From Promethearchaeota archaeon (GTDB lineage Archaea; Asgardarchaeota; Odinarchaeia; Odinarchaeales; JBHLKK01), in assembly GCA_048939465.1 (NCBI GenBank), contig JBHLPL010000116.1:1-5906 (forward strand): DNA of 5,906 nucleotides, in the 5' to 3' direction. How positions within the stretch are numbered: position 1 is the stretch's first letter; each line of letters begins with the position of its first letter. The notes under the pieces were generated by a model. That model saw only the letters and a program-made list of their open reading frames with translations, was not told the DNA's origin and did no database searches. Shown here one piece after another: positions 566 to 3,222 of this stretch. The position numbers and the translations under genes are program-made.

Positions 566-1561
566 TTGAGGAGAATAACTGCCGTTCAATATGGTTTGGG
601 ACCAATAGGTTGCATGATTGCCCGATTGGCCAGCAAAAGAGGAATTGAGATCATAGGGGGGATCGATATCGATAAGCAAAAGATAGGAAAGGATGTTGGT
701 CAAGTTATTGGAATAGATCCTCTTGGCGTAAGAGTCGCCAATAATGCAACAGAATTCTTATCAAAAAGGAAACCAGATATAGTCTACCTGACTACCGTAT
801 CCTGCCTTAAGGATCTTATGCCTCAGCTCGATCAATGCATTGATGCGGGCGCAAACGTAATTTCTACGGCAGAAGAACTCGTTTATCCGTACGCTCAACA
901 TCCGGAGTTGAGCATCAAAATAGATGAGAAGGCGAAAAAGAGACAAGTTACAGTATTGGGTACTGGAATAAACCCTGGCTTTCTTTTCGATACCTTCATC
1001 GTATCTATAGCTGGCCTCTGTGAGAGTATTAACAAGATCAAATGTATACGCGTACAAGATGCGGCAAAAAGAAGACTGTCTCTTCAAAGGAAAATTGGGG
1101 CGGGTCTTTCTAGGGAGGAATTTGAAACTCAGATTCTGAGCAAAAGGGGTCATGTTGGTTTTATTGAATCTATAAGAATGATCGCAGATTCCCTGAAGTG
1201 GAATGTGGAGAAAATCTCGCAGGAAATGGAACCAATAATGGCGGAAAGGAGTGTCAAGAGTAACTACATAGAGGTTGAATCCGGCAAAGTTGCTGGAATC
1301 AAACAGACAGCAAGGGCCCATGTAGATGGAGAAGAAAGGATAGTTCTTGAAATACAATTCTACATAGGAGCCGAGGACCCTCATGATTCCATAAGTATCG
1401 AGGGGTCACCTCCGATACAATTCCACAACAAGACAGGGATAGATGGCGATGTTGCGACAACCGCCCTGGCTGTAAATATGACATCAAAAGTCATTGAAGC
1501 ATCTCCAGGTCTAAAAACCATGCTTGATCTTCCACTTTCATCTGACATTCTCAAACTATGA
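566..1561 (+). CDS. NAD(P)-dependent amine dehydrogenase, 2,4-diaminopentanoate dehydrogenase (Ord)-like / DapB-like N-terminal Rossmann domain, 331 aa
   Basis: TTG start with GGAGTT at 552-557. It has a Rossmann GLGPIG, an acidic beta2 end (GIDID), VISTAEE (the catalytic Glu motif of native AmDHs), GTGINPGF and GHVGF. RVQDAAKRRLSLQRKIGAG differs from the canonical Ord RVND motif, so the substrate is uncertain. Confidence 0.85.
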   Translation: MRRITAVQYGLGPIGCMIARLASKRGIEIIGGIDIDKQKIGKDVGQVIGIDPLGVRVANNATEFLSKRKPDIVYLTTVSCLKDLMPQLDQCIDAGANVISTAEELVYPYAQHPELSIKIDEKAKKRQVTVLGTGINPGFLFDTFIVSIAGLCESINKIKCIRVQDAAKRRLSLQRKIGAGLSREEFETQILSKRGHVGFIESIRMIADSLKWNVEKISQEMEPIMAERSVKSNYIEVESGKVAGIKQTARAHVDGEERIVLEIQFYIGAEDPHDSISIEGSPPIQFHNKTGIDGDVATTALAVNMTSKVIEASPGLKTMLDLPLSSDILKL

Positions 1562-1573
1562 TCTGACTAAGAG

Positions 1574-1579
1574 GGAGGT
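1574..1579 (+). promoter_or_regulatory. Orphaned Shine-Dalgarno (GGAGGT), probably the original RBS of the aminotransferase
   Basis: It lies 12 nt after the dehydrogenase stop. GGAGG ends 7 nt before the element boundary at 1586, where no start codon now follows. Confidence 0.6.
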
Positions 1580-1585
1580 TCATCA

Positions 1586-1646
1586 GTAAACTATCCCTCC
1601 TTGCGGAATGGGCCTGTAAACTACTCCTCCCTTCTGGAAGGAGCCT
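1586..1646 (-). repeat. Head-to-tail imperfect tandem duplication (30 + 31 bp) of the right-end hairpin plus TAGTTTAC
   Basis: On the + strand, 1586-1615 GTAAACTATCCCTCC-TTGCGGAATGGGCCT and 1616-1646 GTAAACTACTCCTCCCTTCTGGAAGGAGCCT match at 24 of 31 aligned positions. Both fold on the minus strand (GCAA and AGAA loops). Confidence 0.85.
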
Positions 1647-1760
1647 ATGACTATGCTAGACCTTGATTCCCTTGCGTGCTTTAGCCTCATCACACGCCAA
1701 ATCAGGGGCGGTTTACAGCGCCCCAGCCCGGCAATCCGCGTATGACGTCGGACTACGGAG
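1586..1760 (-). ncRNA. Putative TnpB omegaRNA scaffold
   Basis: The hairpin GGGGCG-CTGTAAAC-CGCCCC (1724-1705) has an 8-nt loop complementary to the terminal GTTTACAG (1621-1614), consistent with a pseudoknot. Further stems are TGATT/AATCA, GCGTG/CACGC and TCCG/CGGA. One frame reads GAVNRP*, resembling the TnpB C-terminal tails that overlap this scaffold type. The 5' boundary is uncertain. Confidence 0.65.
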
Positions 1761-1899
1761 TTTAACTTACCTACCTGCATCGGTTGTTAACCATTTCCAC
1801 ATAAGAGAGATGTGTGCCTTTAGATCTATTAGTACGTATGGCACAAACTTATCTAAGGATCCCTCAATTTACCTCCGTTCTTTCGGGCGGAGTCTCCTT

Positions 1900-1905
1900 G
1901 AGGTG
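1900..1905 (+). promoter_or_regulatory. Shine-Dalgarno GAGGTG of the aminotransferase, located within the element's left end
   Basis: A perfect archaeal-type SD 6 nt upstream of ATG 1912, at positions +7..+12 of the inferred left end. Confidence 0.75.
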
Positions 1906-1911
1906 GTTAGA

Positions 1912-3222
1912 ATGAAGAAATTTGAAGAATATGAGAATATGACTCCTACCTCCAAGAAATTGTACGAGAAGAGCAAGAAGTTGCTTCCGGGGGGCGTAAG
2001 TCACAACATACGGTTTTTCCGTCCCTACCCTTTCTTCACAAGCAAGGCGCAAGGAGCATACCTCTGGGATGAAGACGGGAATAAATACATTGACTTCTGG
2101 ATGGGTCATATGGCTTGTATTCTGGGCCACGCCCATCCTGCGGTAGTAAAGGCCATCAAAGAGATATTGCCCTCTGGGATACACTGGGGGACTGTCAACA
2201 AGATTGCACTAAGACTGGCCGAAAAGGTGAATGCTGTCGTACCATGCGCTGAAATGGTTAGGTTCTGTAATTCGGGCACCGAAGCCACAATGTATGCTAC
2301 CCGTATAGCGAGAGCTTTTACGGACAGAACTACTGTAATCAAAATGGAGGGAGGCTGGCACGGAGGAAATACCGACCTAATGATTGGTGTGGGTCCTCCG
2401 TACAACAAACCGGACACCGTGGGTCTTCCCTATAGAATCTCTGATTGTATCAAACTTGTTCCCTTCAATGATATCCCTAACAGTATGGAGGTTCTCAGAA
2501 GTGTTGGAGATAAACTGGCTTGTGTGATTGTTGAGCCGGTTTTGGGGGCAGGCGGCGTAATCCCTGCAGATAGAGAGTATCTCGGAATGCTTAGGGAAAT
2601 TACCAGAGACCTTGGAGCTCTTTTGATTTTTGATGAGGTGATAACTGGATTCAGGCTCAGCTTGGGTGGGGCTCAGCAACATTATGGGATTGTTCCCGAT
2701 ATGGCAACCCTAGGAAAAATACTCGGTGGAGGTGCTCCGATAGGCGCCGTAGTAGGAAAGAAAGAGATTATGGAGATGGCGGCTCCCGTTGAAAGAGAAG
2801 ACAATAAGGTTTGGATTGGCGGTGGAACCTTCTCCATGAACCCTCTTACAATGTCTGCTGGTCTTGCTACTTTAGAGTTTCTGCAAGGTAATCCAAATAT
2901 CTACTACAGAATCGAAAAGCTGGGAGAAGAAGTTCGGCAGGAATTGGACAATATCTTTGTCAAATATGGCGTGGTGGCTAAGACAAGCGGTATCAAGTCT
3001 TTGTTCGCGATACACTTTCTAAAGAGACTTATAGAACTCAGAAATCCTCGTCAGTATCTAGGGTTCGTAGATCGGGAAAAAGAAGCAGAATATTATCTCC
3101 GCCTTTTGAAACACGGGGTTTTCTTTCTGCCGGGACACAGTGGATCGATTTCCTGTGCACACTCTGAAGAGGAGATTGAAAGATTGCTGGAGGCAACTAA
3201 AGAGGTGGCAAAAACAACTTAA
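1912..3222 (+). CDS. Class III PLP-dependent aminotransferase, glutamate-1-semialdehyde 2,1-aminomutase (HemL)-like, 436 aa
   Basis: Motifs are GAYLWDEDGNKYIDF, ILGHAHP, RFCNSGTEAT, IVEPV, LIFDEVITGFR, TLGKILGGG (PLP-binding Lys269, codon 2716-2718) and GTFSMNPL. The start is set at 1912 by the SD and by the fact that homology begins there; the 1663-1911 extension is non-coding. The divergent motifs (MGHMA, GGWHGG) make true HemL function uncertain. Confidence 0.88.
   Translation: MKKFEEYENMTPTSKKLYEKSKKLLPGGVSHNIRFFRPYPFFTSKAQGAYLWDEDGNKYIDFWMGHMACILGHAHPAVVKAIKEILPSGIHWGTVNKIALRLAEKVNAVVPCAEMVRFCNSGTEATMYATRIARAFTDRTTVIKMEGGWHGGNTDLMIGVGPPYNKPDTVGLPYRISDCIKLVPFNDIPNSMEVLRSVGDKLACVIVEPVLGAGGVIPADREYLGMLREITRDLGALLIFDEVITGFRLSLGGAQQHYGIVPDMATLGKILGGGAPIGAVVGKKEIMEMAAPVEREDNKVWIGGGTFSMNPLTMSAGLATLEFLQGNPNIYYRIEKLGEEVRQELDNIFVKYGVVAKTSGIKSLFAIHFLKRLIELRNPRQYLGFVDREKEAEYYLRLLKHGVFFLPGHSGSISCAHSEEEIERLLEATKEVAKTT

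Follow-up and report, generated by a model that had tools for sequence, protein, structure and literature searches.

What occupies the 350-bp spacer between a 2,4-diaminopentanoate-dehydrogenase-like gene (566-1561, plus strand) and a class-III aminotransferase gene (1912-3222, plus strand, ATG at 1912; Pfam family Aminotran_3) in a Promethearchaeota archaeon, and can the guide RNA that it seems to encode still direct a nuclease to its target? The spacer lies in a stretch of 5,906 nucleotides, analyzed at full length and called the window below. An initial annotation had placed an orphan TnpB omegaRNA at 1566-1760, with a guide matching the Shine-Dalgarno/start region of the allele that lacks it. 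A search of the window's own genome (G000, a 91% complete MAG of 1.96 Mb in 152 contigs, with congeners G001 and G002) found that most of the spacer is one copy of a dispersed repeat. This copy, at 1616-1911 on the minus strand, is a real guide-RNA-scaffold-bearing, protein-less IS200/IS605 derivative, a new member of an already described kind (Dyall-Smith et al. 2011; Meers et al. 2023). Our preferred reading, to which we assign a probability of roughly 0.8, is that of a non-autonomous, tnpB-only (IS1341-type) derivative with an omegaRNA, probably homing-defective at this locus.

A gene-less mobile element and its empty sites

The element (PATE or MITE) is complete, gene-less and 296 bp long, and is oriented along the minus strand from its left to its right end. 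Its extent was established by alignment of 17 copies from its own genome and 12 from the congeners, and it is collinear with a full-length, tnpB-bearing insertion sequence (IS). The boundaries of the family alignment, TTCAT/CTAAACCACC ... GGAGTAGTTTAC/, are sharp and common to the copies. Read along the minus strand of the window, the flank/element junctions are ...TTCAT/CTAAACCACCTCAAGGAG... and ...GGAGGAGTAGTTTAC/flank. The interval 1566-1760 of the initial annotation thus covers the right-end half of the element plus flank, but not its full extent. The copy retains a left end with a TATA-like box, a TnpB omegaRNA scaffold, and the right end. There are no terminal inverted repeats; near-terminal palindromes at the left end (1871-1893, minus strand) and right end (1623-1645, minus strand) are homologous to those at the ends of the tnpB IS. 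The former is an RNAalifold helix with compensatory changes (columns 20-39 of alignment A1), while the latter covaries with IS copies from Borrarchaeota.

The genome holds at least 17 full-length copies of this ~297-bp family, which share 67-79% identity with the window copy, plus fragments. The congeners contribute 12 further copies, for 29 across the three genomes. At no fewer than eight loci the element is present in one of the three species and absent from another, with a clean empty site, and the mobility of the family is shown by these differences. The window locus itself is empty in both congeners, where the orthologous gene pair is about 84% identical and only nine bases separate the aligned blocks. 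The empty allele of G001 reads ...AGGG(A)GG TTCATCA/ATGGAAGA..., the part after the junction beginning ATGGAAG, with a similar sequence in G002; the junction is seamless and no target is duplicated. All of 1586-1911 (326 bp) must therefore be viewed as inserted DNA. Because the empty alleles join the flank directly to the ATG, the sequence left of 1586 is the Shine-Dalgarno/start region of the element-free site, as the initial annotation had recognized. The native Shine-Dalgarno sequence, GAGGGAGG, lies at 1571-1578 on the plus strand and is followed by the spacer TTCATCA (1579-1585). The filled allele also occurs in contigs of other mangrove-sediment samples, one (X3) spanning all of 1200-2400 and another (X7) spanning 1477-2400. 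Over 1200-2400, no empty joint was seen in contigs of four other metagenome runs, although contigs drop rare variants.

Insertion occurs without duplication, 3' of TTCAT. At this locus the target (1912-1916, minus strand) is the reverse complement of ATGAA, the aminotransferase start codon and the next two bases, with the ORF at offset 0, and the element therefore sits between the native Shine-Dalgarno sequence and the ATG. In a tally of left-end flanks over the 29 copies, TTCAT precedes 15 and NTCAT 20, and the others differ by one base; the TCAT core first proposed for the target-adjacent motif (TAM) thus stands. The aminotransferase starts with ATGAAGAAA (M-K-K) in the window versus ATGGAAGA(G/A) (M-E-E) in both congeners, so that their minus-strand site is TCCAT rather than TTCAT. 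At 10 of the 25 independent family loci, an ORF of at least 100 aa starts on the CAT of the TAM; of all ATGAA sites, 15.7% open an ORF this long. Targeting of TTCAT, combined with survival of harmless insertions, is a sufficient explanation for this bias. The tnpB-bearing parent IS (C70, near position 1000) likewise abuts a host start codon, its TAM overlapping the ATG of an ORF that encodes MKNYTLLIS.... The left end of the window copy places GAGGTGG (1900-1906, plus strand) 5 nt before the ATG at 1912, where it may serve as a replacement Shine-Dalgarno sequence, and the left-end consensus at this position, CTAAACCACCTC, is conserved in the family. No 16S rRNA gene from which to read the anti-Shine-Dalgarno sequence was found in the assembly.

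Two orthologous pairs of copies allowed comparison with their surroundings. The pair C66/G001 shows 85% identity against 84-88% in mostly coding flanks, and the pair C84/G002 shows 71% against 80-86%. No purifying selection was seen on either pair, identity being no better than in the flanks. Selection on the RNA is therefore not evident at this level, and individual copies seem to drift.

Several reduced or unrelated forms accompany these copies. At C139:9844-9868, where the two congeners carry a complete MITE in common, G000 retains a scar of 24 nt in which ~10 nt from the beginning of the left end are fused to the final ~14 nt of the right end; the scar is an in-situ core deletion of the orthologous copy. 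A 48-bp terminal-only miniature of the same family occurs at C69:17420-17467 (CTCAT, then the start of the left end, one hairpin, and GGAGTAGTTTAC), and a 104-bp short form at C84:8667-8770. The window also contains a second, unrelated gene-less IS200/IS605 derivative of ~228 bp at 248-475 on the minus strand, delimited as TTTAT/CTTTTTCTCCCC ... GGGAGCGGTTCAC/. It recurs about 15 times in the genome, and the tnpB IS on contig C2 is a relative. The TGA stop of ORF 3-251 lies inside the right-end terminus of that derivative (GTGAACC, plus strand).

The parent transposon and its enzymes

The genome encodes three full TnpB proteins and one Y1 TnpA. The cognate tnpB is split over contigs C70 and C55, which share 77 identical overlapping bases and were joined in silico into an IS of 1246 bp. 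From the TTCAT at its left-end junction, the joined IS runs 86 nt to an ATG that opens a TnpB reading frame of 381 aa; the stop codon falls 14 nt short of the right end, which reads GTAGTTTAC. An IS of identical architecture lies on single contigs in the two congeners. The cognate TnpB retains an intact D175/E254/D331 triad and two CxxC pairs, contains the Pfam domains OrfB_IS605 and Cas12f1-like_TNB, and has Cas12f and TnpB proteins as its best PDB relatives. The genome check suggested at the outset thus returned what it was meant to find, a tnpA and a tnpB, the latter bounded by GTTTAC ends and with its RuvC D-E-D intact.

The MITE consensus is collinear with this IS. Positions 1-62 correspond to the left end, including a TTAAATA box; 91-102 and 112-132 are tnpB-internal pieces; and both 158-228 (82% identity; IS 1498-1568) and 258-299 align to the final 150 nt of the IS. 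At 296 bp the copy has no room for a transposase gene; the parent ORF is gone from it, and a 16-residue relic is all that aligns, with the TnpB C-terminus. The earlier statement that no tnpB coding sequence remains is accordingly right as to an ORF, but the scaffold itself is the tnpB 3' end.

Two features upstream of the scaffold deserve comment. The TATA-like box of the left end (1848-1858, minus strand), a putative promoter element, reads CCTTAGATAAG here versus CCTTAAATAC in the family consensus and is thus degenerate in the window copy. Its IS counterpart lies about 25 nt before the leaderless tnpB ATG. A conserved central block with invariant columns (1757-1827, minus strand) is collinear with two short tnpB-internal segments, IS 1114-1125 (12/12 matches) and IS 1161-1181 (19/21 matches), and is probably the 5' part of the omegaRNA. 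This most conserved part of the MITE interior (consensus 85-157) derives from mid-tnpB, about 320 nt upstream of the remaining scaffold in the parent.

The single Y1 TnpA (one PF01797 match, 126.7 bits) is encoded on contig C105, in an IS of a different subfamily with a similar right-end terminus and hairpins. A right-end-like solo end lies just upstream of this tnpA (C105:1001-1043). The linked TnpB (C105:1557-2837; L033:568-1848) has Gly at the canonical RuvC-II Glu (IIVGDL, versus VIEDL and VFENL in the other two) and may therefore be nuclease-dead. Related IS elements occur in Candidatus Borrarchaeota contigs (L072-L077). Their TnpB proteins are 68-76% identical, and they share the scaffold, the GTAAAC loop, the GTAGTTTAC end and a covarying right-end hairpin, but are mostly preceded by TTCAC rather than TTCAT.

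The omegaRNA scaffold and its displaced guide

A search of Rfam 15 with E-values up to 10 found nothing in 1560-1915, and Rfam 15 seems to lack a model for this omegaRNA clade. We therefore trained a covariance model, R1, exclusively on 3' regions still attached to tnpB. Of the ten used, four came from this genus and six from Borrarchaeota, and MITEs were left out. R1 finds a single match in the window, at 1616-1756 on the minus strand (85 bits, E-value 3e-17), running over all model positions, 1-151 of 151. The covariance-model check proposed at the outset thus gave no match in Rfam 15 and a full-length one to the tnpB-only model. The model matches all other family copies as well, at 37-120 bits, a range in which the 85 bits of the window copy fall in the lower half. 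Together with the 17 full copies in the genome, this match puts the features noted initially far beyond chance. All of them are present on the minus strand, namely a hairpin at 1705-1724, GTTTAC at both 1616-1621 and 1586-1591, and the flank at 1585-1566.

To assess the structure, 28 MITE and 4 IS copies were aligned, and a hand-drawn fold was compared with controls in which the pairing partners were slid. In the drawn structure 92% of cells are paired, versus 40-53% in the controls; double-change cells number 32 versus 8-12, and the covariation score is 0.197 versus 0.05-0.08. The hairpin GGGGCG-CTGTAAAC-CGCCCC (1705-1724, minus strand) has compensatory double changes in five of its six stem pairs. 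Its stem is GGGGCG/CGCCCC in the MITEs and GGGCTT/AAGCCC in the IS, with the loop kept. An extra long-range helix carries compensatory pairs between IS and MITE. A different long-range helix predicted by RNAalifold, GACC/GGTC, is not conserved in the IS and was discarded. Compensatory changes, both within the family and between MITE and IS, imply that the lineage of copies has been under RNA-structure constraint. The region 1616-1756 (minus strand) is thus supported, by homology and covariation, as a TnpB omegaRNA module without its nuclease, homologous to the tnpB 3' end and ending at the right end. The module is orphan, as first annotated.

The loop of the hairpin, GTAAAC (1711-1716), is the 5' strand of a candidate pseudoknot, and its 3' strand would be the scaffold terminus GUUUAC (GTTTAC in DNA; 1616-1621), which is also the predicted TnpA cleavage end. 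Counted from the terminus, the strands lie at about -113 to -105 and at -6 to -1, and they are paired in 93-97% of cells. Both are almost invariant, with one double change only, so the pseudoknot rests on conservation rather than covariation. A local alternative, TAAGCT (-32 to -27) with AGTTTA, fits the data equally well. We regard the GTAAAC/GTTTAC pseudoknot as plausible but not proven. Of the 8-bp loop-to-terminus complementarity reported initially, 6 bp (GTAAAC/GTTTAC) are a family feature, while the outer 2 bp use the first two bases of a sequence foreign to the scaffold.

That sequence is a 30-nt tail, a solo right end at 1586-1615 on the minus strand that consists of a degenerate hairpin and GTTTAC (1586-1591). 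The initial annotation ended the scaffold at 1586, but the GTTTAC end corresponds to 1616 in 29 of 29 family copies, and the covariance model also ends there. In the alignment the tail corresponds to the final 31 nt of the family consensus, and its first base falls directly after an internal GTCAT of that consensus. Across the three genomes it occurs in the window copy alone; no other copy has it, nor does the empty allele of either congener. The junction between right end and tail (GTTTAC-AGGCCC...) has no second occurrence in G000, G001 or G002. Two histories fit. An older copy at TTCAT may have lost its core between the flanking and the internal TCAT, after which a new copy entered the restored site; or one copy may have entered the internal TCAT of another, the two then moving as a composite by way of the outer right end. 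Since the junction is unique in the three genomes, two insertions plus a deletion are not distinguishable from a nested composite donor. Both histories invoke processes documented for PATEs, in which repeat-mediated core deletions yield terminal-only forms and PATEs insert into PATEs (PMC3119063).

The tail determines what the locus would encode as guide. Because it directly follows the scaffold, the encoded guide is AGGCCCATTCCGCAAG... (also given as AGGCCCATTCC...), not TGATGAACCTCC..., and its first 20 nt, AGGCCCATTCCGCAAGGAGG, occupy 1596-1615 on the minus strand. Such a guide would consequently fail to recognize the ancestral empty site, TTCAT+TGATGAACC. The sequence first taken for the guide, TGATGAACCTCCCTCTTAGT (1585-1566, minus strand), belongs to the flank that predates the entire 326-bp insertion, as the empty alleles of G001 and G002 demonstrate. 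A scaffold that carries a guide against the start region (target TTCAT+TGATGAACCTCCCTCT) is not supported, given the intervening 30 nt, and the window copy lacks a guide that both lies directly 3' of its scaffold and matches the empty site. Other family copies have no tail after the scaffold. A genome-wide search found no second site with a TAM for either candidate guide, the best being a single G000 site with 2 mismatches in the 12-nt seed. For AGGCCCATTCCGCAAGGAGG, the genome held no other match with 2 or fewer mismatches.

Competing readings and related systems

In the history that we favor, of a guide-RNA-bearing derivative probably unable to home from this locus, the ~1246-bp parent would have become a MITE by losing nearly all of tnpB while keeping its left-end hairpin, TATA-like box, ~215-nt scaffold and right end. 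The genome's single Y1 TnpA presumably moves the element. A minus-strand RNA would start behind the left-end box, fold into the TnpB scaffold, and be loaded in trans by the intact C70/C55 TnpB. In ordinary copies the flank would act as guide, so that TnpB cuts the TTCAT+flank site left by excision and the element is copied back. The window copy, with a tail that would come from core deletion of an older element between two TCAT repeats or from a nested composite donor, is probably homing-defective, a fixed and slowly decaying selfish insert in an operon spacer. Points against this reading are the degenerate TATA-like box, a model score in the lower half of the family range, orthologous copies that drift like their flanks, pseudoknot strands too invariant to covary, and a cognate tnpB assembled from two contigs of an incomplete MAG.

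The initial annotation envisaged a functional orphan omegaRNA instead, with TGATGAACCTCCCTCTTAGT as guide and a TnpB supplied in trans that cuts element-free alleles at TAM TCAT, causing homing. The TAM, the active-looking cognate TnpB and the sequence of the empty allele are all as predicted, and the tail, which repeats the last hairpin and the GUUUAC strand, could allow an alternative fold on the outer terminus. We nevertheless consider homing by this copy improbable, since 29 copies and the IS-only model agree on a scaffold end at 1616, leaving 30 extra nt before the proposed guide, whereas in TnpB ribonucleoproteins the guide directly follows the pseudoknot strand (PMC10097598). A variant of the proposal, in which a nuclease-dead, TldR-like TnpB binds translation-start regions through the anti-Shine-Dalgarno-like ACCTCC, could draw on the possibly dead C105 protein. 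That protein, however, comes from another subfamily with an unrelated scaffold, the cognate TnpB keeps its D-E-D, and neither guide has a second TAM-flanked match. ACCTCC is accounted for by the insertion, being what the displaced native Shine-Dalgarno sequence reads on the opposite strand. With the cognate enzyme catalytically complete and the doubtful one assigned elsewhere, the repressor idea is unsupported, and we hold it to be extremely improbable.

The copy might also be an inert relic, neither transcribed nor used by TnpB, its stems intact through fairly young insertion and a structured parent sequence. The degenerate TATA-like box, the lower-half model score, the divergence of orthologous copies at least as fast as their flanks, and the tail in the guide position all fit such a relic, and we treat it as a tentative possibility of some weight. 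It sits less well with the compensatory changes in family and MITE-versus-IS stems, which indicate constraint on the source lineage, and the conservation of the central block and TATA-like box is hard to explain by the needs of TnpA alone. Domestication by the host as a 5' leader, whose plus-strand Shine-Dalgarno sequence and strong structure control translation or stability of the aminotransferase cistron, would account for GAGGTGG before the ATG, for the excess of start codons at family loci, and for the filled allele in other mangrove-sediment contigs where no empty joint was seen. But that excess follows from TTCAT targeting and the survival of non-disruptive insertions, the congeners lack the insert, and orthologous copies show no constraint, all of which makes domestication a doubtful prospect that we rate very low. 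A broader conjecture is that the whole family is specialized for docking between Shine-Dalgarno sequence and ATG, its gene-less copies forming a library of trans TnpB guides antisense to host 5' leaders. It rests on the TTCAT/ATGAA complementarity, the substitute Shine-Dalgarno sequence brought by the left end, and a predicted promoter that faces away from the gene. This is unlikely in our estimation; if true, such guides might, beyond homing, enable TnpB or the RNA on its own to sense or regulate host leaders in Asgard archaea.

Under the preferred reading, of a non-autonomous derivative with a displaced guide, the locus adds a well-delimited Asgard example of guide-RNA-bearing mini-transposons and leaves the known mechanism of such elements unchanged. 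What it offers in particular is a direct comparison of filled with empty alleles, together with a cognate TnpB encoded by the host genome itself and a TAM that falls on start codons. Such elements are a source of TnpB/omegaRNA/TAM triplets, and their recognition is of use in annotating Asgard MAGs, where these inserts interrupt operons, replace ribosome-binding sites, and cause assemblies to break. The solo right-end tail, by uncoupling scaffold from guide, shows a route by which copies can lose their presumed homing ability.

Comparison with known systems begins with ISDra2 (Nakagawa et al. 2023, PMC10097598; PDB 8H1J, 8EXA), in whose omegaRNA positions -3 to -5 pair with -103 to -105 "rather than with the predicted -30 to -32". 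In both cases the RNA overlaps the tnpB 3' end and ends at the right end, with terminal bases complementary to a segment about 100 nt upstream. The distant partner prevails over the nearby one in ISDra2, whereas here the local partner TAAGCT fits equally well. The TAM is TTGAT in ISDra2 and TTCAT here, there is no detectable sequence similarity, and the 5' pseudoknot strand of the window family is a hairpin loop, conserved without proof by covariation.

TldR proteins, reportedly described by Wiegand and colleagues in 2024 (see also PMC13622181), are nuclease-dead TnpB-like repressors encoded outside transposons, beside their guide RNA, with a conserved promoter target. A TnpB-type scaffold with a guide could in principle repress genes. 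The window element differs in that none of those traits (a dead RuvC, a place outside transposons, a neighboring guide, a conserved promoter target) applies to it.

PATEs, known from Haloquadratum walsbyi and other archaea, are gene-less, lack inverted terminal repeats, have IS605-like near-terminal palindromes, duplicate no target, and occur as heterogeneous copies (Dyall-Smith et al. 2011, PMC3119063). The element at 1616-1911 shares all of these defining features and differs in its Asgard host and in a TTCAT target that coincides with start codons. The PATE description predates the omegaRNA and did not consider RNA content. The closest parallel in that respect is found in Geobacillus stearothermophilus, where PATE-like elements accompanying ISGst1-5 are minimal, gene-less and non-autonomous IS200/IS605 elements that "often encode omegaRNAs" used in trans by TnpB from other IS copies (Meers et al. 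2023, PMC10055086). Those elements are bacterial and their activity was demonstrated experimentally, whereas the archaeal element described here is known from sequence and carries a solo right-end tail that displaces its guide.
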